Shown: positions 37,561 to 63,398, counted from the first letter of the stretch. The stretch: DNA of 64,000 nucleotides from a virus (IMGVR_UViG_3300017917_003016:1-64000); one strand, 5' to 3'. Notes: generated from the letters alone by a model not told the origin. Numbers and translations are program-made.

Positions 37561-38847
37561 ATGGACTATAAAATAGCAGATATAAATTTAGCCCCATGGG
37601 GACATCGAGAAATAGCCATTGCGGAAACAGAAATGCCGGGGCTAATGAGCGTCCTAGAAGAATATCGCGCCCAGCAACCTCTTAAGGGCGCACGTATAGC
37701 AGGCAGTCTGCACATGACCATACAGACCGCAGTATTGGTCAAGGTTCTAGTTGCATTGGGCGCAGAAGTTCGTTGGTCAAGTTGTAACATTTTTAGTACA
37801 CAAGACCATGCAGCAGCAGCCCTGGCAGATCTAGGTATACCTGTGTTTGCTTGGAAAGGTGAAACAGAAGAAGAATATTGGTGGTGTATAGAACAGACTA
37901 TACAAGGCCCCAACGGTTGGAAGCCCAACATGCTGCTAGATGATGGGCATGATCTTACTTGGTGGGTACATCAGAATCGTCCTGATTTATTAGACAATAT
38001 CATAGGAGTTACAGAAGAAACTACTACAGGTATACATAAGATACGTGAAGCACAGGCCCGCGGCGAGTTCCGCCTGCGTGCTATCAATGTCAACGATTCA
38101 GTAACAAAATCAAAGTTTGACAACCTTTATGGTTGCAGAGAAAGTCTAGTGGACGGCATCAAACGTGCAACAGATGTTATGATTGCTGGTAAGATTGCAG
38201 TGGTTGCAGGATTTGGTGATGTAGGCAAGGGCAGTGCTGCTGCGTTGCGAGCATTGAGTGCCCAGGTCTGGGTAACTGAAATAGATCCTATCTGCGCACT
38301 ACAAGCAGCCATGGAAGGATATCGTGTGGTCACCATGGATTGGGCTGCTGACAAAGCAGACATATTCGTTACTGCCACAGGCAACATCGATGTGATTACA
38401 CACGACCACATGGCAAAGATGAAGCATAACGCCATAGTGTGCAATATAGGCCACTTTGACAGTGAAATTGATATTACTAGCCTAGAAAAGTATGAGTGGG
38501 AAGAAATTAAACCACAGGTTGATCACGTGATATTCCCAGACGGTCGTCGTATTATTGTGCTAGCCAAAGGACGCCTGGTAAATCTAGGCTGTGCAACAGG
38601 GCACCCTAGTTACGTTATGAGTAACAGTTTCACTAATCAGGTCATAGCACAGATAGAACTGTATACCAACTATAAAAATTATGAGGTTGGTGAACTATAT
38701 CTGCTGCCCAAAAATTTAGACGAACTAGTGGCTAAATTACATCTAAAGAAAATTGGTGCAGAGTTAACTAATTTAACCTATGAACAGGCAGAATACATAG
38801 GAGTTGAGGTACATGGCCCATACAAGCCAGACACCTATCGTTATTAG
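37561..38847 (+). CDS. ahcY: S-adenosylhomocysteine hydrolase
   Basis: [14 protein letters not shown]; SCNIFSTQD; EETTTG; [14 protein letters not shown]; GFGDVGKG; [11 protein letters not shown]; [10 protein letters not shown]. Confidence 0.98.
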
Positions 38848-38872: not shown

Positions 38873-38913
38873 ATGTTGCAGAGCAGCATAATTTTTCATA
38901 TAATGTATAAATA
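38873..38913 (+). promoter_or_regulatory. Sigma70 promoter overlapped by a PhaR-like operator, followed by a late promoter
   Basis: ATGTTGC-AGA-GCAGCAT (38873-38889) covers -35 TTGCAG; N17; TATAAT 38899-38904; TATAAATA 38906-38913. Confidence 0.6.
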
Positions 38914-38985
38914 GATGTAGCAGTAAGGGGATGCTGCGGGTGCAGGTCTCACAAGTAAACTCGCTTATTTAAAAGGAGAACGCAA

Positions 38986-39177
38986 ATGTTTACAGTTGAT
39001 TATGCAGTTGAGCAAGGTGTTAAGAACGCCAAGACCGTTAGTGCTTTGATTACAAACAAGGAACTTCGTACTGAAGTTGACCGTTTCATTGATGCACAGG
39101 CCGAATATACTAAGACTCTAGTAGAATCAGTGACTAAGATCGGCAAGGCATTTTACGGTTCTGTAGCGACCAAGTAA
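38986..39177 (+). CDS. Phasin-like small amphipathic protein
   Basis: 63 aa, helical, FIDAQAEYTKTLVESV pattern; strong AAGGAG RBS; PhaR-like site upstream. Confidence 0.5.
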   Translation: MFTVDYAVEQGVKNAKTVSALITNKELRTEVDRFIDAQAEYTKTLVESVTKIGKAFYGSVATK

Positions 39178-39197
39178 TTGTATACTTGATCAATACC

Positions 39198-39220
39198 AAG
39201 CCCGCTATATGCGGGCTTTT
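39198..39220 (+). terminator. Rho-independent terminator
   Basis: AAGCCCGC-tatat-GCGGGCTTTT. Confidence 0.85.
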
Positions 39221-39232
39221 ATTTTGATGTTT

Positions 39233-39250
39233 TTGTAATAATAGTGTAAT
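39233..39250 (+). promoter_or_regulatory. Putative Pho box
   Basis: TTGTAAT-AATA-GTGTAAT, 11-bp-period direct repeat resembling CTGTCAT-A(A/T)A(T/A)-CTGT(C/A)A(C/T). Confidence 0.4.
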
Positions 39251-39301
39251 TGATTTTCAAGTAAATATAAAGTAAGTTATAAGATTATTGAAAGGGTGTC
39301 G

Positions 39302-39403
39302 ATGATTGAAATTTTCTTAGGAATTCTAGGAGAAGCATTGCAAGAAATAGGGGTATATCTTATGGTTCTTGTTGCTGCATCAATATGGAACATTTCAAAT
39401 TAA
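39302..39403 (+). CDS. Small hydrophobic peptide (33 aa)
   Basis: MIEIFLGILGEALQEIGVYLMVLVAASIWNISN; AAAGGG RBS; not in the ORF track. Confidence 0.45.
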   Translation: MIEIFLGILGEALQEIGVYLMVLVAASIWNISN

Positions 39404-39427
39404 AAAACAAATTTGTATTTGATTACC

Positions 39428-39457
39428 CAAGGGGTACTGCTTCGGTAGTACCCCTTG
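39428..39457 (+). other. 13-bp stem with C(UUCG)G tetraloop upstream of the plcP-like gene
   Basis: CAAGGGGTACTGC-TTCG-GTAGTACCCCTTG; no U-tract follows. Confidence 0.8.
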
Positions 39458-39476
39458 TCACATTGTGAGATAAAAA

Positions 39477-40304
39477 ATGGAGCAGAACAAAACATATAAA
39501 ACAATCTGTATATCAGATGTTCACTTGGGCAGCAAAGATTCACAGGCTTCGTTGCTGAATAATTTTCTCAAGAACAACAGTTGCAGCCATCTCTTTTTAG
39601 TAGGGGACATAATCGACGGTTGGAAAATACAACAAAACAAGTGGCGCTGGAAACAGAGCCACTCAAATGTAGTGCGCCGCGTTTTGGGAATGGCTAAACA
39701 CGGTACTAAAGTTACTTACATTACAGGCAACCATGACGAATTTTTAAGACCTTTTGTTACCAATGCATTTTTAATGGGTAATATTACAGTGGTTAATCAG
39801 GCAGAATATCGCGACACTGACGGCAATCTTTATCTGTTAACACATGGCGATATGTTTGATGGAATTACTCGAGCAGCCAAATGGTTAAATCTTCTCGGTG
39901 ACAAAGCCTATGATTTTGTATTGTGGATTAATACACATTTCAATTGGTGGAGGCATAGATTTGGTTTTGGCTATTGGAGCCTAAGTAAATTTCTCAAGCA
40001 CAGAGTAAAACGTGCGGTAAATTTCATTTTTGAATTTGAATCAGTACTAGTCAACTATTGTCGTAAAAGAGGATTTGATGGGGTTATCTGTGGGCACATA
40101 CACACTCCAGAAATAAAAACTATCGATGGGATAAACTACATGAACTGCGGCGATTGGGTAGAAAGTTGTTCTGCCTTGGTAGAACACTGGGATGGCCGTT
40201 GGGAAATAGTCTATTGGACAAAGGAGCAAGAAGATGTGGTTATTGCTTTTAACAGCAGTGCACGTGAACAATCCAAACGACATACCAGCAAAAATGTGGC
40301 TTGA
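39477..40304 (+). CDS. PlcP-like metallophosphoesterase (LpxH-related phospholipase C)
   Basis: SDVHLG, GDIIDGW, GNHD, HGD, CGHIH and NCGDWVES motifs; paired with a GT4 gene. Confidence 0.8.
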   Translation: MEQNKTYKTICISDVHLGSKDSQASLLNNFLKNNSCSHLFLVGDIIDGWKIQQNKWRWKQSHSNVVRRVLGMAKHGTKVTYITGNHDEFLRPFVTNAFLMGNITVVNQAEYRDTDGNLYLLTHGDMFDGITRAAKWLNLLGDKAYDFVLWINTHFNWWRHRFGFGYWSLSKFLKHRVKRAVNFIFEFESVLVNYCRKRGFDGVICGHIHTPEIKTIDGINYMNCGDWVESCSALVEHWDGRWEIVYWTKEQEDVVIAFNSSAREQSKRHTSKNVA

Positions 40305-40388
40305 ATTTGAGTCACAAGAATCATGCGAACGTGCTCTTGGCACTATGACTTTTTGGGTTAAATTTCCAGCATTTAAGGTAACAGGAAC

Positions 40389-41396
40389 ATGCACAAAAAA
40401 ATCTTAATCATAACTGATAATCTAAGGGACCAAGTAAATGGCGTTGTCACCACGTTCAAAAATCTTGAGAGTCTGGCTGTTCGTTCTGGTTATAGTCTTG
40501 TTTATATTGATCCCGGGCAGTTCCCTCATATTAATTGCCCTGGTTATCCTGAAGTTAAGTTATCCTGGCCTTGGGGTATTGGAAAAAAGATTGCGGCGGT
40601 GGCTCCGGATCATATACATATCGCTACGGAAGGTCCATTAGGCCTTGCTGCCAGAATCTGGTGCGACCGTAATGGCAAGACCTATAACACCAGTTATCAT
40701 ACTAAATTTCCTGAGTTTTTAGAGCGTTTGTATAATTTTCCTCGTTCTTGGTCCTATTGGTATATGCGTTGGTTTCACAAACATTCGGGGAAGGTTCTTA
40801 CTACCACACAAACTATGGTAAGAGAACTTAAATCACATGGATTCAGTGACAATGTCGTAAGTTGGACACGCGGAGTAGATAAAAAAGTCTTTAGCGATAA
40901 ACTAAGAAGCCCAGAAGTAAATGGTCATCCCATATTGTTAAGTGTTGGTCGTGTTAGCCGAGAAAAAGGTCTTGATGATTTTTGTCAATTAGATGTCCCA
41001 AACGCAACCAAAGTAATTGTAGGTAATGGTCCTTATCGTGCAGAATTAGAGAAAAAATATCCTAATGTAATGTTTGCAGGGTCAAAGTTTGAGCATGAAC
41101 TAGCAGAATATTATGCCAATGCTGATGTATTTGTTTTTACTAGCCGTGTGGACACGTTTGGTATAGTAATGATCGAAAGTCTAAGTTGCGGTACTCCTGT
41201 TGCAGCCTATCCTGTGCCGGGCCCGATAGATATCGTTGAAAACGGTGTTAACGGATACCTGTCTGATGATCTAAATCAAGCCATTCAACAGTGTTTGACC
41301 ATAAGTAGAAAGCAGGTTTATAAATCTAGCCAAAAGTGGACTTGGGAAAATTGTTGGCAGATATTTCATGATAACCTTGTGCCTTCTAAATTTTAA
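40389..41396 (+). CDS. GT4 glycosyltransferase, Agt-like glycolipid synthase
   Basis: ILIITD...QVNGVVTT; HIHIATEGPLG; SVGRVSREKGL; DTFGIVMIESLSCGTPV. Confidence 0.82.
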   Translation: MHKKILIITDNLRDQVNGVVTTFKNLESLAVRSGYSLVYIDPGQFPHINCPGYPEVKLSWPWGIGKKIAAVAPDHIHIATEGPLGLAARIWCDRNGKTYNTSYHTKFPEFLERLYNFPRSWSYWYMRWFHKHSGKVLTTTQTMVRELKSHGFSDNVVSWTRGVDKKVFSDKLRSPEVNGHPILLSVGRVSREKGLDDFCQLDVPNATKVIVGNGPYRAELEKKYPNVMFAGSKFEHELAEYYANADVFVFTSRVDTFGIVMIESLSCGTPVAAYPVPGPIDIVENGVNGYLSDDLNQAIQQCLTISRKQVYKSSQKWTWENCWQIFHDNLVPSKF

Positions 41397-41453
41397 TGAT
41401 TTCCAGTAAAATTTTTGTTTGACCTTAGGCATAAGTAATTACATAGTAATAAG

Positions 41454-41479
41454 ACAAAACCCACTTGCGTGGGTTTTGT
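41454..41479. terminator. Bidirectional-type terminator hairpin
   Basis: ACAAAACCCAC-ttgc-GTGGGTTTTGT. Confidence 0.8.
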
Positions 41480-41490
41480 TGCGATTAAGG

Positions 41491-41559
41491 ATAGTAAATT
41501 TTTTTTATGTTTGTAATAGGAAAAAACAATTAGACTTAAACTCATTATAAGTTTAAACT
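41491..41559 (+). promoter_or_regulatory. OxyR-like site abutting a sigma70 promoter
   Basis: ATAG-N10-TTAT-N7-ATAG-N7-CAAT (41491-41530), then TAGACT-N17-TAAACT (41531-41559). Confidence 0.6.
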
Positions 41560-41580
41560 ATTAAAAGTGTAGGAGATTAT

Positions 41581-41646
41581 ATGTTTGAAATTGTAATCGC
41601 GCTCATAATGGTAGGACTGTTTTGGGCATCATTTGGAAATATTTAA
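41581..41646 (+). CDS. Small hydrophobic leader peptide (21 aa)
   Basis: MFEIVIALIMVGLFWASFGNI; AGGAG RBS; not in the ORF track. Confidence 0.5.
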   Translation: MFEIVIALIMVGLFWASFGNI

Positions 41647-41657
41647 AGGAGAAATCA

Positions 41658-42092
41658 ATGAAACTAGTAGGAACAAAGACAGAGCAGCATCTTAAGGACG
41701 CATTTGCAGGTGAATCAAAGGCTAACCGCCGCTATCTATACTTTGCCAACATGGCTGACATTGTAGGCGCACCAGATGTCGCTAACATCTTTCGACATAC
41801 TGCTGAAGGTGAAACCGGCCACGCCCACGGGCATATGGAATACCTAATCAAGGGTGGTTCAGGCGACCCCGAAACTGGCCTTCCGGCCAATGATATCGTT
41901 CAAGCACTGGAAAGTGCTATTCACGGCGAAACACACGAGTACACTGACATGTATCCGAGCATGGCCCGTGATGCACGTGACGAAGGCTTTGACGAAATCG
42001 CTGATTGGTTTGAAACACTGGCCAAGGCAGAGCGCAGCCATGCTGGCAAATTCCAACGCACTCTTGACGCTTTTGTTAAAGAGAACGCATGA
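41658..42092 (+). CDS. Rubrerythrin (short form without rubredoxin domain)
   Basis: [16 protein letters not shown]; [10 protein letters not shown]; [10 protein letters not shown]; AERSHA diiron ligands; start after AAGGAG. Confidence 0.92.
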
Positions 42093-42679
42093 TGCTAACT
42101 CGCGACGACTTATGGAGTTTAGAAGAATATAGTCAGGTTCGCGAGGAATTCAAACCTGCTGCAGCAGCACATCGCAAACTGCGGCAGGTCAGTATTGGCG
42201 ACCATATGACTATTAGTTTTGAAGATCAGTTTACCGTCAAGTATCAGATTCAAGAAATGCTGTTGATAGAAAAAACTTTTACTGCAGAAGGTATTCAAGA
42301 TGAACTTGACGCATACAATCCTCTAATTCCTACAGGCACCAATCTTAAGGCTACACTGTATATTGAGTACAGTGATCCAACAGAGAGAGCACAGCGCCTC
42401 AAAGATCTTAAACGTGTTGAGGATCGAGTTTTTATAAAAGTCGGTAATTATCAAGCAGTCTATGCCATTGCGGACGAAGATATGGATCGAAGTAATCTGG
42501 ACAAGACTAGCGCAGTACATTTTCTAAGATTTGAACTTACTGAGCCAATGATTACAGCCTTAAGACACGGTGTCAACTTGGATGTTGGAGTGAATCATCC
42601 TGCTTATCCTGTGATTGCAACTGTATCTGATCAAACTCGTGATGCGTTAGTGCAGGATTTTGATAAAGAAATTGCTTGA
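42089..42679 (+). CDS. DUF3501-like protein
   Basis: FE...[13 protein letters not shown]...[13 protein letters not shown]...[12 protein letters not shown]; coupled to rubrerythrin. Confidence 0.8.
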
Positions 42680-42687
42680 TTTAAATT

Positions 42688-42715
42688 TGTAAAGCCTGCG
42701 CAGGCGGGCTTTACA
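42688..42715. terminator. Bidirectional terminator between convergent genes
   Basis: TGTAAAGCCTGC-gcag-GCGGGCTTTACA. Confidence 0.8.
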
Positions 42716-56145: not shown

Positions 56146-56535
56146 ATGGCATACTTTAGTCAAGAACGCAAGGCTCAAATCGCCCCCAAGGTCAAGAGTA
56201 TCCTGAAGAAGTACGGCCTTAAGGGTAGCCTTAGTGTGCGCAATCACAGCACTGTGGTCTTGACCATCAACAGCGGCAAGATTGACTTTATCGGTAACAA
56301 CCAAGAGACCATGGGTCGCACCTGGGCCCAGCGCCGCACCAATCTTGATGTCAACATTTATCACTATCGTAATCACTTTGACGGTGTTGCACGTGACGCA
56401 CTCGCTGAACTGATTACTGCTCTCAACGACGGCAACTGGGACAACAGCGACATCCAGACCGACTACTTTGACAAGGGTTGGTACGTTAACGTCAATGTTG
56501 GTCGTTGGAACAAGGGTTATATTGTCACTGCCTAA
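56146..56535 (+). CDS. Early hypothetical protein
   Basis: 129 aa directly after P1; DYFDKGWYVNVNVGRWNKGY. Confidence 0.8.
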   Translation: MAYFSQERKAQIAPKVKSILKKYGLKGSLSVRNHSTVVLTINSGKIDFIGNNQETMGRTWAQRRTNLDVNIYHYRNHFDGVARDALAELITALNDGNWDNSDIQTDYFDKGWYVNVNVGRWNKGYIVTA

Positions 56536-56545
56536 GGAGGCTAAG

Positions 56546-56692
56546 ATGTTTGATCTTATCGATGACACGGCTGCACTCCACGCTCAATGGGAACTTGAGT
56601 ATCAAGAATGGCTAGGTAGCGAAGCCTGGGTTGAAGTTGTTAACCAGTGGCTTTGTGAATTGGCTAACGAAATGCTCAATGAGGAGGCCTAA
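56546..56692 (+). CDS. Small acidic early protein
   Basis: MFDLIDDTAALHAQWE...; AAGGAGG RBS. Confidence 0.65.
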   Translation: MFDLIDDTAALHAQWELEYQEWLGSEAWVEVVNQWLCELANEMLNEEA

Positions 56693-56859
56693 TGGAAAGC
56701 GTTCAAATGAATGAAATTCTGCAGCGCATGGCTCGTGAACGTAATTGTACGGTTTATCAGGTCATTCAAGAGTATTTGAAATACCAATTAAACGGGCAAG
56801 TCAAACACTTTTGGCCTGACCAAAACGAGGCCTGTAGGTCCTATTTGGAGAACAACTGA
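56692..56859 (+). CDS. Small early protein (55 aa)
   Basis: MESVQMNEILQRMARERNC...; GAGGAGG RBS; TAATG coupling; not in the ORF track. Confidence 0.6.
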   Translation: MESVQMNEILQRMARERNCTVYQVIQEYLKYQLNGQVKHFWPDQNEACRSYLENN

Positions 56860-56927
56860 TGAGTCTTATTGGACTTATTGTAATGCTGCTGGTACTTGGT
56901 ATTCTTATTGGAAGGTACATTAGGTGA
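56859..56927 (+). CDS. Tiny membrane peptide (22 aa)
   Basis: MSLIGLIVMLLVLGILIGRYIR; TGATG and GTGA overlaps with both neighbours. Confidence 0.5.
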   Translation: MSLIGLIVMLLVLGILIGRYIR

Positions 56928-57151
56928 CTGCAGAATCTGAGCGTTTTTGTCAACTAATTGATGAATTGAGGCGGGCCTATGTTGCCTCAGATTCTGCAGA
57001 AAGTTCATATGCAAGGCTAGTTGGTGCTCTGGGTGCTATGATACCTTGGTATGTAGACGCTGAAAATCTAGCCAAACTCAACAATGCTCTAGAACAAGCA
57101 GTTAAAAACGAAACTATGAAAATTCTTGGTAAGGAAAATATCCATGCTTGA
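56924..57151 (+). CDS. Early hypothetical protein
   Basis: 75 aa, GTG start coupled to the previous stop. Confidence 0.6.
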   Translation: MTAESERFCQLIDELRRAYVASDSAESSYARLVGALGAMIPWYVDAENLAKLNNALEQAVKNETMKILGKENIHA

Positions 57152-57533
57152 TCAAGAAAACGAGAAGTTCAACGAAGTTGTGTTTGATGGCATCCGTTTT
57201 CTAGAGAGCCTGACTCGTTATTACGGTGCTGAGCGTGGCATGGAAGTCTGGGAACAGTTGGGTGAAGTTGTAGGCAAGGACGTGCAGGGCCAGGTGTTCT
57301 TTGCCATGCTCACGGGCGATACCAGTAACCGTGTGAGAATCAGCCGCGGCACCTGTAAAGAAGCAGTGACCGCTATCAAGGCCATTCGTCAGGCCACTGG
57401 CATGAGTCTCAAAGAAGCCAAGGATGCCTGGGATCTCACTGCAGTCAAGACCGTGACTCTTGACAATGTTCAGCGCGATGCCAAACAGGAGTTTCTTCGC
57501 GATCTTCGCAGTATTGGTGTGAGGGTTCACTAA
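57144..57533 (+). CDS. Protein with a ribosomal L7/L12 C-terminal-like domain
   Basis: AVTAIKAIRQATGMSLKEAKDAWD matches the L7/L12 CTD motif (VIKAVRxxTGLGLKEAKDLVE). Confidence 0.7.
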   Translation: MLDQENEKFNEVVFDGIRFLESLTRYYGAERGMEVWEQLGEVVGKDVQGQVFFAMLTGDTSNRVRISRGTCKEAVTAIKAIRQATGMSLKEAKDAWDLTAVKTVTLDNVQRDAKQEFLRDLRSIGVRVH

Positions 57534-57534
57534 C

Positions 57535-57999
57535 ATGGCAGAAATTTTTTACCGTAAGGTCGGCCGCCGCTATGTCCCAGTCAGTGAATATGACAACTCT
57601 GTCATGGACAGTTTTCCCTACGGATCTCATCTTGTGGTGGTAAAGCGAGGATCAACTAGCCGCCGCCACAACATTGATCCTGCACACGCACCTATGATCG
57701 CTGCTGGTCTTATTGCTGAAGATGCAGTGAGAGAAGCATTGGTCAAAGCCGGCGAAATTCGCCTGCAACGCCGTGACCGTGAACGTCAACTTACACCCGG
57801 ACAAAAGCAGGCCTGGGATAATCTAGTCAAAGAATTTGGTGACAGTGCCAAACAACTGGAATGGCCCAGCACTGCAGAAGTTGCTGAAGAAGGAGTTAAA
57901 GCCATGCAGCGAGAAGCAGATCAACTGCTGCAGAACCCCTCAGTACGTGCAGCCTATGATCATTTTTTGACAGTCTGCGAACTGTGCCGCGAGCATTAA
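57535..57999 (+). CDS. Early hypothetical protein
   Basis: 154 aa; IFYRKVGRRYVPVSEYD. Confidence 0.7.
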   Translation: MAEIFYRKVGRRYVPVSEYDNSVMDSFPYGSHLVVVKRGSTSRRHNIDPAHAPMIAAGLIAEDAVREALVKAGEIRLQRRDRERQLTPGQKQAWDNLVKEFGDSAKQLEWPSTAEVAEEGVKAMQREADQLLQNPSVRAAYDHFLTVCELCREH

Positions 58000-58003
58000 A
58001 ATT

Positions 58004-58060
58004 GGTTGACCTTGCCTGCAGATCACTGTATAATGCTTGCATACGCTAACAAAGCAGGAG
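58004..58060 (+). promoter_or_regulatory. Early promoter P2
   Basis: GG-TTGACC(58006)-N17-TATAAT(58029); CAGGAG RBS. Confidence 0.88.
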
Positions 58061-58068
58061 TAGACAAC

Positions 58069-58416
58069 ATGGCTTACATCGTTTTCCATTTTGAAACTCG
58101 CCAAATCATCAAGCATTATGCTTCGCGCAAGGGTGCACTGGTTGGTCTCCGTGCTGCTAATCGCAATGCTGGCTATCCGCAGCGTTGGACTCTGTGCAAC
58201 TACGATGTTGATCACGGTGCTCTGCGTGAGTGGTGCGAGACTGCCGATGGCTCCAACGGCTATGCTCCTTATGCTGCTATCGAATCCAACCTGTTTGATC
58301 AACACTATCGTCGCAACATCACGGTGACCAATCTTATGACGGGCAAGCCTGTGGAAATTGACAGCAACACCCCGTGGAGTTGCCGCCCGGACAGCGAAGC
58401 CTACTGGAGTAACTAA
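58069..58416 (+). CDS. Early hypothetical protein
   Basis: MAYIVFHFETRQ...; C-terminal NTPWSCRPDSEAYWS; start placed after the P2 RBS. Confidence 0.75.
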   Translation: MAYIVFHFETRQIIKHYASRKGALVGLRAANRNAGYPQRWTLCNYDVDHGALREWCETADGSNGYAPYAAIESNLFDQHYRRNITVTNLMTGKPVEIDSNTPWSCRPDSEAYWSN

Positions 58417-58431
58417 TTTAATGAGCCAAAC

Positions 58432-58707
58432 ATGATTAACATTCAATTTAACATTCACAATCCACTAGTTCATCGATTTGTGCCCGTTAAGATATGGCAA
58501 GGTCCAACTCCTATTGAACACAAATTTTGGGAGTTGGAAATCTACAAGAGTTCGGATATTGTTGATGCGTTCTTTCGTTTCGACTGTTGTCAAAGCCATG
58601 CTGGGCTGCATCTAGGTCTAGCACTGCTGGGATACAACATTGAATTTCAAATCTATGACCATCGTCATTGGGACTATGAAGAAGAAGATTGGTATTATAA
58701 TGAATAA
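58432..58707 (+). CDS. Hypothetical protein
   Basis: 91 aa; SHAGLHLGLALLGY...IYDHRHWDY. Confidence 0.65.
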   Translation: MINIQFNIHNPLVHRFVPVKIWQGPTPIEHKFWELEIYKSSDIVDAFFRFDCCQSHAGLHLGLALLGYNIEFQIYDHRHWDYEEEDWYYNE

Positions 58708-58717
58708 GGAACTGATT

Positions 58718-58852
58718 ATGAAAACTATTGCACTGGTAATTGCTGTACTGTCGCTGATTTCTTTGGCATTTAACTACTCTGATCCTGCAGCAGCCGCAGG
58801 TTGGGCTGTGGCCTTTGCTGGTTGGATCTTCCACGCACTGGCCAAAGAATAA
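58718..58852 (+). CDS. Small two-TM membrane protein
   Basis: MKTIALVIAVLSLISLAF...AAGWAVAFAGWIF; AAGGA RBS. Confidence 0.55.
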   Translation: MKTIALVIAVLSLISLAFNYSDPAAAAGWAVAFAGWIFHALAKE

Positions 58853-58899
58853 AATGAAATTTATGCTGCAACTGGGACTCTGCGGAATCTAAAGACCGT

Positions 58900-59118
58900 A
58901 TGAATCAAAAAATTCGTGAGTTTATTCAAAGGTCTTATCCTCAAGTTGACCTTGACCAAGAAATTGCCAATCGCGATGAATTGCCTAAAGAAGTTGAGCA
59001 TTTGGTTACCCTAGTGGTGGAAGAATGTCTTAAGGTTAGTGGCCGCACCCCCACAGTGTGGCCTTTTGCCTTTATAGATTTTAACAAGGTAATCAGACGA
59101 CATTTTGGCCTAGATTAG
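58900..59118 (+). CDS. Hypothetical protein
   Basis: 72 aa; LVTLVVEECLKV...IRRHFG. Confidence 0.55.
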   Translation: MNQKIREFIQRSYPQVDLDQEIANRDELPKEVEHLVTLVVEECLKVSGRTPTVWPFAFIDFNKVIRRHFGLD

Positions 59119-59181
59119 ATTTTGGTTGACCTTTTGTTCCTGTGATCTTATAATAGTGGCATAACGTAAAACACAGGAGCA
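59116..59181 (+). promoter_or_regulatory. Early promoter-leader-RBS cassette P3, near-copy of P1
   Basis: TAGATTTTGG-TTGACC(59126)-N17-TATAAT(59149)-AGTGGCATAACGTAAAACACAGGAGC. Confidence 0.9.
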
Positions 59182-59185
59182 AGGC

Positions 59186-59446
59186 ATGAACAGTCAAGCC
59201 ATTCAAACTGCTATCTATACTTGGGCAACCAACGGTAGTTTTTCTGCACCTTACGGTGTGCTCACTGGCCAACACGCCAGTCGCAATGGTCGCAACTATC
59301 ATTCAGTGACCTTTGGTCGTGCCCGCAGTCTGGACTGCGAAGTGCAGATCTACAACAGGAATTTTATTGTAGTACGTACTAACCGTCATGGTAGCCAGGT
59401 ATTTCGTAACTACCAAGACTGTCAAAACTTCCTGGATACTCTGTAA
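59186..59446 (+). CDS. Early hypothetical protein
   Basis: 86 aa directly after P3. Confidence 0.75.
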   Translation: MNSQAIQTAIYTWATNGSFSAPYGVLTGQHASRNGRNYHSVTFGRARSLDCEVQIYNRNFIVVRTNRHGSQVFRNYQDCQNFLDTL

Positions 59447-59482
59447 TTCTTCCAACAGATAAATATCTAACAAGGACCTGCA

Positions 59483-59665
59483 ATGAAAATCACTGAAGTT
59501 AGCAAGACCAATCGCCAAGCACTGCGCGAAAGCCTTGAACAGTCCAACGATACTGGTTTCAGTGTTGACGACCTTATGACTATCTACGATCTGCACAAGA
59601 ACGGTGATTGGGACTGTGTAGACGCCGATGATGAAATTGCACGTCTTGATGCTATGATTGACTAA
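59483..59665 (+). CDS. Small acidic protein, candidate antitoxin
   Basis: Late promoter GATAAATA at 59458-59465; MKITEV N-terminus; acidic C-terminal half; directly upstream of a RelE/YafQ-like gene. Confidence 0.55.
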   Translation: MKITEVSKTNRQALRESLEQSNDTGFSVDDLMTIYDLHKNGDWDCVDADDEIARLDAMID

Positions 59666-59670
59666 TCAGT

Positions 59671-60072
59671 ATGCCTGCGCCGCGCGATAATAAACCACAA
59701 ATACAAAGAAAATTTTGGCGCAGTACAGAGTACCGAGATCAGGTCAACCCAGAAAATCCAAATCGAGTCCGCGGTTCAGTCAAAGATTCTCTTAAGAGAT
59801 TTTTGAGCAGCAAAAGAACTAATCCGCAACAGTCCTACGGCAACAAAGACTATCCGTTTACATCAGCAGGGCAATTTGCCCATGAAGTTCCGGGACTGAT
59901 GCATGCTCATTTAAGTCAAGATCTTTCCATAGTCTATAAAGTTCAAGGTAACGAAATATATCTTTTTGGGATATTTTCACATGCTGACCTTGGTACCGGA
60001 AATCCTCCAAATATTCGTAAACAAACTAGTATGGCACGAAGATTTGCCAACATGACCTTTACTGAAGAATGA
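59671..60072 (+). CDS. RelE/YafQ-like mRNA interferase
   Basis: DYPFT...GLMHAHLSQDLSIVYKVQGNEIYLFGIFSHADL parallels YafQ (DHPL...ECHIxPDWLLIY...LxLxRxGSHSDLF). Confidence 0.65.
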   Translation: MPAPRDNKPQIQRKFWRSTEYRDQVNPENPNRVRGSVKDSLKRFLSSKRTNPQQSYGNKDYPFTSAGQFAHEVPGLMHAHLSQDLSIVYKVQGNEIYLFGIFSHADLGTGNPPNIRKQTSMARRFANMTFTEE

Positions 60073-60078
60073 CTCTTT

Positions 60079-60133
60079 GGTTGACAACCCTGCTCTAGAC
60101 CTGTATAATAGCGGTACAGTGAACAACAAGGAG
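60079..60133 (+). promoter_or_regulatory. Early promoter P4
   Basis: GG-TTGACA(60081)-N17-TATAAT(60104); AAGGAGC RBS. Confidence 0.9.
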
Positions 60134-60141
60134 CAACAACA

Positions 60142-60297
60142 ATGACCCACAATGAAATCATGGACGAATGGGCACGTCGACTCAATTACGTTGCACAACT
60201 GTTCCGTGAAGGTGAGATTGATCTGTGTGAGTTTGACGAACGCAACGCTGCGGTGCAAGGTTGGTTTGACACTGAGTATGCCAAGGTAGTTGGTTAA
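60142..60297 (+). CDS. Small early protein (51 aa)
   Basis: MTHNEIMDEWARRLNYVAQLFREG...; follows P4; not in the ORF track. Confidence 0.7.
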   Translation: MTHNEIMDEWARRLNYVAQLFREGEIDLCEFDERNAAVQGWFDTEYAKVVG

Positions 60298-60316
60298 TTT
60301 TAACAAGGAGCGCACA

Positions 60317-60406
60317 ATGTATATTCCCCAACCTGTGATTATTTTTGTTGTGTCCCTTCTCATCGGCTACGGCGCTGCTGACATTTTTGCAAAATTCTTC
60401 AATTAA
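60317..60406 (+). CDS. Small membrane peptide (29 aa)
   Basis: MYIPQPVIIFVVSLLIGYGAADIFAKFFN; AAGGAGC RBS. Confidence 0.6.
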   Translation: MYIPQPVIIFVVSLLIGYGAADIFAKFFN

Positions 60407-60431
60407 TCACTTGCTCAATCAGGAGATAACT

Positions 60432-60701
60432 ATGACTGCACAAGAAATCGTTCGCGAGATCGTCACTGGCAACTTCACTGCTGATGAAGTTCGCAGTTTC
60501 TACGACGCCTATAAGTTTGCTGCCAATCAACTGTCGCGCAAGGCAACCTTTACTCTGCGCCGAGGCGACAAGGTCAAGTTCAAGGACCGCTATGGTTTGG
60601 AAGTGATCGGTACTGTGCAGGACATCAAGATCAAGAACGTAGTGGTTAAGACTACGTTGTATACCTACCGTGTGCCGGCTAGCATGGTGACTGCGGCTTA
60701 A
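60432..60701 (+). CDS. Early protein with SH3/KOW-like C-terminus
   Basis: MTAQEIV...; LRRGDKVKF...GTVQDIKIKNVVV..YRVPASM; CAGGAG RBS. Confidence 0.7.
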   Translation: MTAQEIVREIVTGNFTADEVRSFYDAYKFAANQLSRKATFTLRRGDKVKFKDRYGLEVIGTVQDIKIKNVVVKTTLYTYRVPASMVTAA

Positions 60702-60703
60702 TT

Positions 60704-60907
60704 ATGATTATTACCGAAGAACGTCAAATGGTTCTGCAGGCAGTGCTTGACGGGCAACTGAGTGCAGATTATGTCACCGACGAAGAACTTATCTTTCTGC
60801 ATCACAGTCTAGCAGATTCTACTATTGAAGAAGCCATGTATGCAGCAGAGTCTCGCAATGATGTGACGGTGTTTGGTCTTGACTGGGAATATGCGCAGCC
60901 CAATTGA
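60704..60907 (+). CDS. Hypothetical acidic protein
   Basis: 67 aa, packed in the operon. Confidence 0.55.
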   Translation: MIITEERQMVLQAVLDGQLSADYVTDEELIFLHHSLADSTIEEAMYAAESRNDVTVFGLDWEYAQPN

Positions 60908-61106
60908 CACCAAAAGATATCCTTATCAGGTTGTGGTTGTTGAGCCTATACCAGTCATGGCACACATTTGGTTAAAAAATAATCAAATTGATCACAAGGA
61001 CTCCTTTACTGAGGGTGCTGCTGTGGGACAGTTAGATCCTCTGGTGCGTTGTATCTATTTTGCCGATGCTCGTGATGCTGCTTGGTTTGCTTTGAAGTGG
61101 TCATAA
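60891..61106 (+). CDS. Hypothetical protein
   Basis: Ends in IYFADARDAAWFALKWS. Confidence 0.55.
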   Translation: MRSPIDTKRYPYQVVVVEPIPVMAHIWLKNNQIDHKDSFTEGAAVGQLDPLVRCIYFADARDAAWFALKWS

Positions 61107-61126
61107 AATTTGAAATTAGGTAAATT

Positions 61127-61318
61127 ATGATAGAAAAAACTAGATTAGATGGATTACTGTTCGCCATGTTAGGCGACAGTCAGTTGGTAGAACGTTGGTG
61201 GTATAGTCCTAACAAGGCCTTTGACTCAGAAAGGCCGATTGATGTTTTTGTACTAGAGCCCGATCGAGTCAGAGACTATGTCATGCGTATGGCCAATCTC
61301 AACAGTGACTACGACTGA
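61127..61318 (+). CDS. Stand-alone MbcA/ParS/Xre antitoxin C-terminal-like protein
   Basis: MLGDSQLVERWWYSPNKAFDSERPIDV...VRDYV resembles the G...A..WL..PN.AL.G..P.D pattern. Confidence 0.55.
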   Translation: MIEKTRLDGLLFAMLGDSQLVERWWYSPNKAFDSERPIDVFVLEPDRVRDYVMRMANLNSDYD

Positions 61319-61380
61319 TTTTGGTTGACATTTTGGTCCGTTGATCGTACAATAGCATCATACTAACAACAACGGAGCAA
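61316..61380 (+). promoter_or_regulatory. Early promoter P5
   Basis: GATTTTGG-TTGACA(61325)-N17-TACAAT(61348)-AGCATCATACTAACAACAACGGAGC. Confidence 0.88.
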
Positions 61381-61384
61381 GACT

Positions 61385-62014
61385 ATGGCCTACTACCGCA
61401 AGCACCAAGTGGAAGAACCCCGTTTTACGGTCAAGGAGATTGTGGCCGCAGCCATTATTCAAGATGAACAACATCCCACAAAGGACGGTGTTCCGCTGAC
61501 TACTCGTGACATCCTTGAAAGCACTCCTGTGCTGCCCGTGGCTCGTGCTGAGCAAATGATTGAAGAAGTACAGCAGAATTTTACTCTCAGCATGCTGCGC
61601 GGTCGAGAGTTCAGCAACTTCAATCGCAAGTTGGCAGAAATCATCAGCGAGCCTGAAGCCAAAACCAACAGCAATTTTGGTATCCTTGCTTATGTTCCCA
61701 GTGTTCACCGTGACCTGGTCAAGACCAACACTATTACTGAACAAACCTGTGACAGCCGCTATCAAGGACGCACAGGCGAAACTTTGAATTTTACGGCTCG
61801 CGTGTTGAACTGCCGTTACATTGCCAGTTATGGTTTCTATACCGCACTGTTGCTTGACGACACCGGTAACGTCTACAGTTTCAGTCCTAAGGCTTCGCTA
61901 GATGAAGGTGCGACTGTGACCATCCGTGGCAAGGTCAAGGCACACAAGCAGGACAAGTACAACAACAACGTTGAGACTACCTATCTCAACTATGTCAAGA
62001 TTCAAAAAAATTAA
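61385..62014 (+). CDS. Early protein with a C-terminal OB-fold-like domain
   Basis: GETLNFTARVLNCRY...DDTGNVYSF...VTIRGKVKAH...TYLNYVKI. Confidence 0.7.
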   Translation: MAYYRKHQVEEPRFTVKEIVAAAIIQDEQHPTKDGVPLTTRDILESTPVLPVARAEQMIEEVQQNFTLSMLRGREFSNFNRKLAEIISEPEAKTNSNFGILAYVPSVHRDLVKTNTITEQTCDSRYQGRTGETLNFTARVLNCRYIASYGFYTALLLDDTGNVYSFSPKASLDEGATVTIRGKVKAHKQDKYNNNVETTYLNYVKIQKN

Positions 62015-62017
62015 ACA

Positions 62018-62082
62018 AGATTTGGTTGACAGGCTTACCAAAATATCATATAATAGCATCATAACGTAACAACACAGGAGCA
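62018..62082 (+). promoter_or_regulatory. Early promoter-leader-RBS cassette P6
   Basis: GG-TTGACA(62026)-N17-TATAAT(62049)-AGCATCATAACGTAACAACACAGGAGC. Confidence 0.9.
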
Positions 62083-62088
62083 GCACAA

Positions 62089-62490
62089 ATGGCCAAGATC
62101 TACACCTTCGACGAGAACATTGTTAGCGATCTGTACAAGGATGCCTATGGTCACCGCCCGGGCCAATCGTTCTGGGAAATGTGGAAGACTGTCACCGACC
62201 GTGACCGCCAAGAAATTTGGGACAACCTGCTTGAGGCTCTGGACCGTGCCGTTGAGCAAGAACGTGCTGCCCGGACTCGTGCCGAGCATGACTTCCAGTT
62301 CACTATTGCTAGCCTGATGCATGCAGGTGCCAAGGACTTTGAAATGGCCGTTCGTTGGCTACATGACGCAAACGACACCCAAGGTGACGATGAGTACCTG
62401 GAGTACAAGTTGGGAATTGGCTACGGCTATATCCGCGAGGCTCGTGAGTCCATGCAGGTTGCCAATGAACTGCTGGCACAAACCGCATAA
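62089..62490 (+). CDS. Early hypothetical protein
   Basis: 133 aa; SDLYKDAYGHRP. Confidence 0.75.
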   Translation: MAKIYTFDENIVSDLYKDAYGHRPGQSFWEMWKTVTDRDRQEIWDNLLEALDRAVEQERAARTRAEHDFQFTIASLMHAGAKDFEMAVRWLHDANDTQGDDEYLEYKLGIGYGYIREARESMQVANELLAQTA

Positions 62491-62492
62491 GT

Positions 62493-62563
62493 GGTTGACA
62501 ACTAGATCCAAAGATCATATAATACTGAAACTGTAGTACAAAACACAATAACTTTTCAGGAGC
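62493..62563 (+). promoter_or_regulatory. Early promoter P7
   Basis: GG-TTGACA(62495)-N17-TATAAT(62518); CAGGAGC RBS. Confidence 0.9.
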
Positions 62564-62570
62564 ATAGACA

Positions 62571-63398
62571 ATGAAGACTACCACTCGTACTCGCGTTCGT
62601 ATTGCCAAGGCCCCGGTCAAGACTGAAGCCCAGCGCATGCAGGAGATTGCTGAACGTTTTGAAATCCTGGATGAAATGGCCAAGGCCACTACCAACGGTG
62701 ATATCCGTGCTATGATTGTTTCGGGCCCTCCGGGTGTGGGCAAGAGTTTTGGCATCGAGCGTGTTATTGACAAGGCTGTGTTGTTTGACCAAGTGGCCGG
62801 CAAGCGTCTGCGCTGCGAAGTGGTCAAGGGTGCTGCCAGTGCCATTGGCCTGTATACCACTCTGTACAAGTACAGTGATCCTAACTGTGTTGTGGTGTTC
62901 GATGACTGTGATAGCATCCTGTTGGACGATGTCTGTCTTAACCTGCTTAAGGGTGCACTGGACTCGGGCAAGAAGCGCCGCATTTCGTGGCTCAGCGACA
63001 GCAACATTCTGCGCCGCGAAGGTGTGCCTAATCAGTTCGACTTCAAGGGTGCTGTGATCTTTATCACCAACCTTAAGTTTGATGACATGAAGAGCAAGAA
63101 GTTGGCTGACCACCTTGAGGCTCTGCAAAGCCGTTGCCACTACATTGACCTGGCTCTGGACACTACTGAAGACAAGATTCTGCGTATCAAGCAGATTGCT
63201 GCTACTGGTGAACTGTTCCAAGATTATGAGTTTGATCAGTGCGTTCAGGACGAAATCATCGAGTTTATGACTACTAACAGCAGTCATCTTCGTGAAATCA
63301 GTCTGCGTATGGCCATCAAGATTGCTGACCTGCGCAAGAGTTTCCCTGTCAAGTGGCAGGCCCTGGCTCGTACTACCTGTATGAAGGCCGCGGCGTAA
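62571..63398 (+). CDS. AAA+ / P-loop ATPase
   Basis: Walker A GPPGVGKS; Walker B VVVFDDCD; IFITN; ALQSRC arginine finger. Confidence 0.88.
   Translation: MKTTTRTRVRIAKAPVKTEAQRMQEIAERFEILDEMAKATTNGDIRAMIVSGPPGVGKSFGIERVIDKAVLFDQVAGKRLRCEVVKGAASAIGLYTTLYKYSDPNCVVVFDDCDSILLDDVCLNLLKGALDSGKKRRISWLSDSNILRREGVPNQFDFKGAVIFITNLKFDDMKSKKLADHLEALQSRCHYIDLALDTTEDKILRIKQIAATGELFQDYEFDQCVQDEIIEFMTTNSSHLREISLRMAIKIADLRKSFPVKWQALARTTCMKAAA

Follow-up and report, generated by a model that had tools for sequence, protein, structure and literature searches.

The window analysed here covers the opening 64 kb of a virus record of 201,732 bp from IMG/VR (IMGVR_UViG_3300017917_003016:1-64000), whose completeness CheckV puts at 56%. 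Between positions 38,873 and 42,679 it holds three co-oriented gene cassettes, each with a terminator at its end and each with a site of a bacterial regulator type in its promoter region. Reading along the stretch, ahcY (37561-38847) is followed by the gene for a 63-residue protein, p63 (38986-39177), and terminator 1, then by a Pho cassette coding for a PlcP-like metallophosphoesterase (39477-40304) and an Agt-like GT4 glycosyltransferase (40389-41396), by terminator 2, by a cassette in which the gene for rubrerythrin (rbr, 41658-42092) precedes that for a DUF3501 protein (42089-42679), and by terminator 3. The three sites are a PhaR-type palindrome, a Pho box and an OxyR-type site. Features of the cassettes lie on the plus strand, the palindrome, the OxyR-type site and terminator 2 being assigned no strand. 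This stretch is part of an auxiliary metabolic gene island of an uncultured freshwater jumbo phage; the contigs of relatives with the same genes are metagenomic viral contigs of 330-367 kb, and the host is probably an alpha- or betaproteobacterium. Relatives' loci used for comparison carry L numbers.

The Pho box, TGTAAT-N5-TGTAAT at 39234-39250, was identified by motif search and conservation and is followed by an 11-nt spacer and a -10-like TAAATA, so that the promoter as a whole spans 39234-39267. Its 7-bp direct repeats have the 11-bp period that marks a Pho box, and it lies 5' of a hydrophobic open reading frame (ORF) of 33 codons (39302-39403, read from the sequence, with a start conserved in L183), which heads the cassette and itself precedes plcP. 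The motif has a single match in the 201.7 kb of the record, and its expected count is 0.0 when the TAAAT element is required. We compared the regions upstream of 80 plcP orthologues on viral contigs (65-77% protein identity), using 73 non-redundant loci for counts. The recurrent element before these genes is TGT(A/C)A(C/T)-N5-TGT(A/C)A(C/T) followed by TAAATA. A perfect repeat is found within 250 nt 5' of plcP at 28 of the 73 loci and in 0/73 control stretches taken inside plcP; when a match of at least 11/12 is accepted, the figures are 39/73 and 4/73. Nine of the 15 other perfect repeats in the plcP loci stand directly 5' of a pstS-like gene, and one pstS-like gene behind a Pho box was confirmed as PBP_like_2. 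Of 43 distinct sites, 30 have TAAAT exactly 11 nt past the second repeat, and a third repeat is present in most of the others. The box thus appears to stand in for a -35 element, about 10 nt before the -10, with TAAATA as the candidate sigma70 -10. The Pho-box-like repeat that a preliminary description of this DNA had placed before the plcP/agt-like pair was borne out in this way, and we regard the box as very probably functional. Two other readings were discarded: TTGTCACATTGTGAG, directly before the plcP ATG, was rejected as a Pho box for its 8-nt period, the lack of room for a -10 and the conserved box 230 nt upstream, and the idea that the Pho motif is a general phage promoter was rejected on its one occurrence in the record.

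Both enzymes of this cassette were assigned by family matches and homologues. The metallophosphoesterase matches Metallophos (E 6.5e-14) and scores 32-45 bits against LpxH models whose cut-offs are 134-190; with a Metallophos fold that is not an LpxH equivalog, and paired with agt, it is a predicted PlcP. Bacterial PlcP homologues from Ideonella, Rhodoferax and Thalassospira share 46-52% identity with it; in Thalassospira agt adjoins plcP, and 11-bp-period repeats are visible 5' of plcP in Ideonella and Thalassospira. Between the 33-codon ORF and plcP, RNA folding gives a 13-bp hairpin with a UUCG loop (39428-39457); the surrounding 77-nt stretch folds at -26.6 kcal/mol (z -4.8), and no U-tract follows the hairpin. 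GC-rich hairpins likewise occur at the pstS-plcP junctions of L018, L040 and L042, and together these may be within-operon stability or processing elements. Micro-ORFs comparable to that at 39302-39403 abut plcP in L028, L032, L036 and L054. This 33-codon ORF and a hydrophobic 21-codon ORF in the rbr cassette may code for leader peptides or for small membrane proteins.

The palindrome at 38873-38889, ATGTTGC-N3-GCAGCAT with centre AGA, resembles the operator of PhaR, for which the published consensus is YTKNTGCRNYGCANMAR in R. eutropha (PMC12849132) and the core YGCRNYGCR in S. meliloti (PMC12542648). It has three mismatches to the former, one of them in the core, and is a slightly degenerate copy of ATGTTGCANTGCAACAT, a 17-mer that lies over the promoter -35 of a small phage gene family to which p63 belongs. 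In the window, a sigma70-like promoter, TTGCAG-N17-TATAAT (38876-38904, read from the sequence), has its -35 inside the palindrome, a layout found throughout the family. A T4-late-type promoter motif, TATAAATA, follows at 38906-38913 and is invariant in L182 and L183. In these two close relatives the genes and signals also run ahcY, p63, terminator, Pho box, and at the aligned position L182 has a perfect palindrome, ATGTTGCATTGCAACAT, and L183 also has a better copy than the window. A PhaR operator has a conserved TGCR-N-YGCA core and T/A at position 7 from the centre; the core is perfect in L182 and in the family consensus. Of the ten positions described in the literature as almost perfectly conserved (on either side of the centre, 1-4 and 7), the window palindrome keeps nine. 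Taken alone it is not significant, since 221 sites in the record fit the PhaR 17-mer equally well.

Across 57 non-redundant p63-family loci the upstream plan consists of the palindrome ATGTTGC-N3-GCAACAT, in which TTGCAN forms the -35, of TATAAT 17-18 nt away and sometimes of TAAATA; further 3' come a covarying leader hairpin and then a conserved GTAAACTCGCTTA. The core TGCRNYGCA lies within 150 nt upstream at 25 of the 57 loci, at -47 to -109, where the background is 0.010 per 150 nt, and 21 of these 25 sites fall at -87 to -109. A scan of 658 kb from viral loci that had not been chosen for p63 gave matches of at least 16/17, with the central N included in the count, in two settings only: ahead of a p63-like gene and ahead of rbr. 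A search of 185,579 species genomes with the exact consensus 17-mer, not the window variant, placed it at 80 bacterial loci, mostly in alpha- and betaproteobacteria. The ORFs flanking these sites (n=118) include 17 with Phasin_2 and three PHB depolymerases (PHB_depo_C), the phasin-flanked sites coming from Ideonella, Mitsuaria, Albidiferax, Azonexus, Thauera, Thalassospira and Azospirillum, among others. Because it is flanked in bacteria by genes for phasins and for depolymerases of polyhydroxybutyrate (PHB), the exact 17-mer can be taken as a genuine phasin-promoter operator. As a set of putative operators, the palindrome family fits the published PhaR consensus, and we consider the window site likely to be functional. 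A second conserved palindrome, TTAGTGA-N4-6-TCACTAA, is seen some 20-40 nt 5' of the PhaR-type box in many p63-family loci (L190, L191, L195, L199, L215 and others); in the window it is absent, the corresponding position being taken up by the ahcY stop.

The cargo behind the palindrome is less readily named. The p63 family comprises proteins of 63-118 residues on jumbo-phage contigs, with no informative name in the sources and no Pfam domain, and p63 itself has no match in Pfam or NCBIfam. Below the Pfam thresholds, no other domain is matched by the family nearly as often as Phasin_2 (PF09361, gathering threshold 24.9 bits): 9 of 43 members hit it, as do 4 of 10 longer ones, with 14-17 bits and E-values of 0.009-0.05, and hhalign of the family against bacterial phasins gives P 0.006 at a probability of 6%. 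An AlphaFold model of p63 is a two-helix hairpin with a predicted local distance difference test score (pLDDT) of 90, and searches of the PDB and of AlphaFold database clusters with it returned only generic helical-hairpin matches, all with E >0.6. The matches of phmmer to long proteins were discarded as low-complexity or coiled-coil artefacts that form no consistent family. Family comparison and model together suggest a two-helix protein, weakly phasin-like by sequence; of the claim that a PhaR-like palindrome precedes a phasin-like gene, the palindrome stood, and the description of the gene is backed by sub-threshold similarity only. Its 5' untranslated region (UTR) is structured throughout the family (38928-38975 in the window; L184-L250), with a hairpin (38928-38950) in which compensatory changes among 28 sequences affect six of the nine pairs, then GTAAACTCGCTTA, which hardly varies, and a ribosome-binding site; no Rfam family matches this structure.

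Before the rbr cassette lies a site of the OxyR or LysR-type transcriptional regulator kind, GTAA-N7-TTAT-N7-ATAG-N7-CAAT (41494-41530), which agrees with the published OxyR motif ATAG-N7-CTAT-N7-ATAG-N7-CTAT (PMC5002191) at 12 of 16 positions. A score of 12 or higher is reached at only 12 of the roughly 201,700 positions in the record. Rubrerythrin-DUF3501 loci that we call bacterial from their 66-75% rubrerythrin identity and GC-rich flanks, not from taxon labels, carry OxyR sites of 13-16/16 at -122 to -143 from rbr: L170 and L174 match at 16/16, and nine others at 13-14/16, eight of these nine within that interval. Homologous operons thus appear to carry canonical OxyR sites at the same place. 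Among 18 non-redundant phage rbr loci, 15 retain the central (C/G/T)TAT-N7-AT(A/T)(G/A) between -110 and -131. A weight matrix built from the rbr-promoter sites of nine distinct relatives, the window excluded, ranks 41494-41530 first of 403,392 positions in the opposite-strand reading (22.8 bits against 13.5 for the next), and the same-strand reading ranks sixth, in keeping with the symmetry of such a site. The OxyR-like site previously noted before rubrerythrin/DUF3501 was in this respect upheld, and we consider its function somewhat favoured. Conservation upstream of orthologues in related phages, the check that the preliminary description had proposed, came out positive for all three sites. 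No divergent LysR gene was found beside the bacterial rbr operons. In L088, L089, L092, L093, L110 and L127, a PhaR-type core (TGCA-N-TGCA in ATGCAATGCAAC-like sequence) lies just 3' of the -10 of rbr promoters in which the OxyR-like element is present too, which suggests their dual control by OxyR-type and PhaR-type sites.

The rubrerythrin of this cassette (144 residues, Rubrerythrin domain only) is of the aerobic, rubredoxin-less type and is accompanied by the DUF3501 protein (E 7e-68), whose start overlaps the rbr stop. No RFO Fe-S oxidoreductase, the usual third member of the aerobic-type rubrerythrin system (PMC5114695), adjoins the pair in the window. Ahead of rbr, the 21-codon ORF (41581-41646, read from the sequence) has its stop directly against the rbr ribosome-binding site; a similar micro-ORF precedes rbr in L097.

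The three terminators are real. Terminator 1 (39198-39218, -16.9 kcal/mol) is conserved in L182 and L183, terminator 2 (41454-41479, -18.4 kcal/mol) is a two-way hairpin with a poor U-tract on the plus strand, terminator 3 lies at 42688-42715 (-20.2 kcal/mol), and the folding z-scores of the three are -4.8 to -5.6. No strong terminator is present between ahcY and p63, that is, 5' of cassette 1, so that the proposal that each unit is insulated by its own terminator holds for the downstream ends and fails at the upstream end of the first unit. In Rfam, the region 38700-42800 matches no family, with only sub-threshold hits to a Trp-leader-like element over terminator 1 and to a CRISPR repeat over terminator 3. 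DNA similarity to named phages is confined to the neighbouring sugar epimerase, which matches cyanophages at about 67-69%, and among metagenome contigs no relative of the whole island has a DUF3501 identity above 66%. Two promoter classes occur in the record: near-consensus TTGACA-N17-TATAAT promoters, which form a series at 56-63 kb, and many NATAAATA motifs directly 5' of genes, which resemble the T4 late promoter TATAAATA; from these motifs, we read the phage as using T4-like late-type promoters. Within 56146-62571 of the window, near-identical early-type promoters (TTGGTTGAC...-N17-TATAAT, with a conserved leader ending in ACAGGAGCA) precede successive small genes.

No PHB_acc_N (PhaR), Trans_reg_C (OmpR/PhoB-type) or LysR helix-turn-helix domain is encoded in the 201.7 kb of this 56%-complete record, and host proteins are therefore the economical candidates for binding the three sites. 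With one host-regulator-type site in each promoter region, the phage would therefore modulate each cassette by the state of its host. From the sites, their conservation and their specificity, all of which are observed, we infer binding by host proteins, a direction of regulation and a function for p63 along the following lines. PhaR on the palindrome over the -35 would keep cassette 1, with its small phasin-like cargo, repressed until PHB granules titrate PhaR away. Phosphorylated PhoB on the Pho box, 11 nt before the -10, would turn on cassette 2 (micro-ORF, PlcP and Agt) under phosphate scarcity, and its products would put glycolipid in place of phospholipid. Oxidised OxyR on the four-element OxyR/LysR-type site would activate cassette 3 (micro-ORF, rubrerythrin and DUF3501), providing peroxide defence. 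Modulation of this kind would be layered over the phage's own temporal promoters. That the phage tunes the three cassettes to host carbon, phosphate and peroxide state through host-regulator sites is, in our view, the reading to be preferred, with fair though not high confidence.

Several observations weigh against this reading. In the window palindrome the core, TGCA-G-AGCA, has a mismatch, at a two-fold degenerate position, and 3 of the 17 positions are off; p63 has no Phasin_2 match, all members of its family are under the threshold, and two methods align p63 to phasins in differing registers. The window OxyR-type site is degenerate at just 12/16, relatives have a second CTAT-N16-ATAG element over the -35 that the window does not, and no -35/-10 could be placed for cassette 3, the window being without the clear TTGAYN-N17-TATAAT of relatives. 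The -10 of the Pho promoter is the same TAAATA as in the phage's many late-type promoters, and PhoB normally works via region 4 of sigma70, which is absent from the T4-type late sigma. In cyanophage S-PM2d, moreover, Pho boxes predicted by bioinformatics were poor predictors of PhoB binding (PMC10976474). The tandem arrangement is a further point: three cassettes in a row are present in the window, as described before, but this layout is lineage-specific, relatives having the cassettes scattered or otherwise ordered, so that the array as a conserved unit was not sustained. In L034 (4001-8282), one island brings together Pho box-plcP and Pho box-pstS with a perfect PhaR box that precedes a 91-residue p63-like gene, and multi-sensor islands therefore recur with differing contents; the L094 and L095 islands hold plcP, rbr-DUF3501 and ahcY. 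Finally, the TAAATA elements suggest that phage late transcription also drives cassettes 1 and 2. Because late-type elements accompany two of the cassettes, the earlier wording that the genes are expressed only when the host regulon fires is too strong; the inferred sensor array passes the comparative test for three predicted sites and loses its exclusivity.

These points bear on three other explanations. The sites might be relics of bacterial capture, the cassettes being expressed by the phage programme alone, through late-type TAAATA promoters and read-through, without host regulators. The TATAAATA and TAAATA elements of cassettes 1 and 2, the degeneracy of the PhaR-type and OxyR-type sites in the window and the ancestral perfect site in bacterial rbr operons all speak for this. 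It is nevertheless hard to reconcile with the fixed position of the sites in phages that differ in their flanks and share only 35-77% protein identity, with the Pho box that stands before phage pstS too, and with the fixed spacing to the -10, since neutral remnants would have decayed; we consider it unlikely. A phage-encoded regulator that binds the sites, mimicking or competing with host factors, would have to lie in the 44% of the genome that is absent from the record, or be one of the proteins that fall in no known family. With a record that is 56% complete, and given the many uncharacterised proteins of jumbo phages, there is room for one, but the absence of the three regulator domains from 201.7 kb and the identity of the motifs with those beside bacterial phasin, pstS/plcP and rbr genes make this quite improbable.

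For the first site alone, 38873-38889 could be a weak terminator or RNA hairpin that closes the ahcY operon, and no operator. A terminator scan does list this segment, with seven pairs followed by a T-run; the arm differences in the window and L183 are G-U compatible, and it folds at -6.9 kcal/mol (z -2.2). An element with that role would not be expected at the -35 of a TATAAT promoter in 57 family loci whatever the upstream gene, usually without a T-run, nor with a left arm far more constant than the right, nor as the same 17-mer beside bacterial phasin genes, and we give this explanation little credence. Host-regulator control through the three sites remains our preferred reading.

Its closest known counterpart is in cyanophages, in which pstS/phoA and other genes come under host PhoR/PhoB via Pho boxes (Zeng & Chisholm 2012, as cited in PMC10976474). 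In both cases a phage auxiliary gene stands behind a PhoB-type site, and relatives of the present phage carry pstS behind the same box; the box here, however, is of the proteobacterial type, TGT(A/C)A(C/T) with an 11-bp period, whereas the cyanobacterial one is PyTTAAPyPy(T/A), and the cargo is a predicted PlcP-Agt lipid-remodelling pair. The bacterial plcP-agt lipid-remodelling operon of the Pho regulon (Sebastian et al., PMC4796936) shares the order PlcP then Agt and a predicted Pho box upstream. It differs in that the operon described here is phage-borne, has the 33-codon hydrophobic ORF and the UUCG hairpin between promoter and plcP, and codes for predicted enzymes, PlcP being 46-52% identical to the homologues compared. 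The PhaR-phaP circuit of PHB-storing bacteria, described in Ralstonia eutropha (PMC12849132) and for AniA in Sinorhizobium meliloti (PMC12542648), likewise places a palindrome with a TGCR-N-YGCA core at or over the -35 of a gene for a small amphipathic helical protein, and the identical 17-mer flanks genuine phasin genes. Here, by contrast, the protein is a 63-residue phage product below the Phasin_2 threshold, the window site has its core mismatch, a late-type promoter lies 3' of the box, and the same box is found on rbr promoters in some relatives. As for the aerobic-type cluster RBR-(RFO)-DUF3501 (Cardenas et al., PMC5114695) under OxyR control, a rubredoxin-less rubrerythrin translationally coupled to DUF3501 and a four-element ATAG/CTAT site about 120-165 nt upstream are common to both, while the version in the window is phage-borne, lacks the RFO partner, has a site of 12/16 and has the 21-codon ORF before rbr.

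A literature search returned no report of phage plcP-agt, of a phage phasin or of PhaR- or OxyR-wired phage genes, and to our knowledge experimental host control of phage auxiliary genes is limited to PhoB in cyanophages. A single 3.8-kb stretch offers three clean, testable promoters, each with a distinct candidate host sensor and with natural variants by the dozen among related phages. More broadly, jumbo phages of PHB-storing proteobacteria may have a multi-channel read-out of host physiology via PhaR, PhoB and OxyR, including a phasin-like protein and dual-site rbr promoters, a generalisation that we offer tentatively, as something a little short of evenly balanced. If it is true, host-regulator control of phage auxiliary genes would reach well past the single known PhoB case. 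If the sites are functional, phages would sense the host's carbon reserve and oxidative stress besides phosphate. PlcP-Agt lipid remodelling and a phage phasin-like protein would then be new classes of condition-dependent host reprogramming, and the operator motifs could aid host assignment of uncultured jumbo phages.

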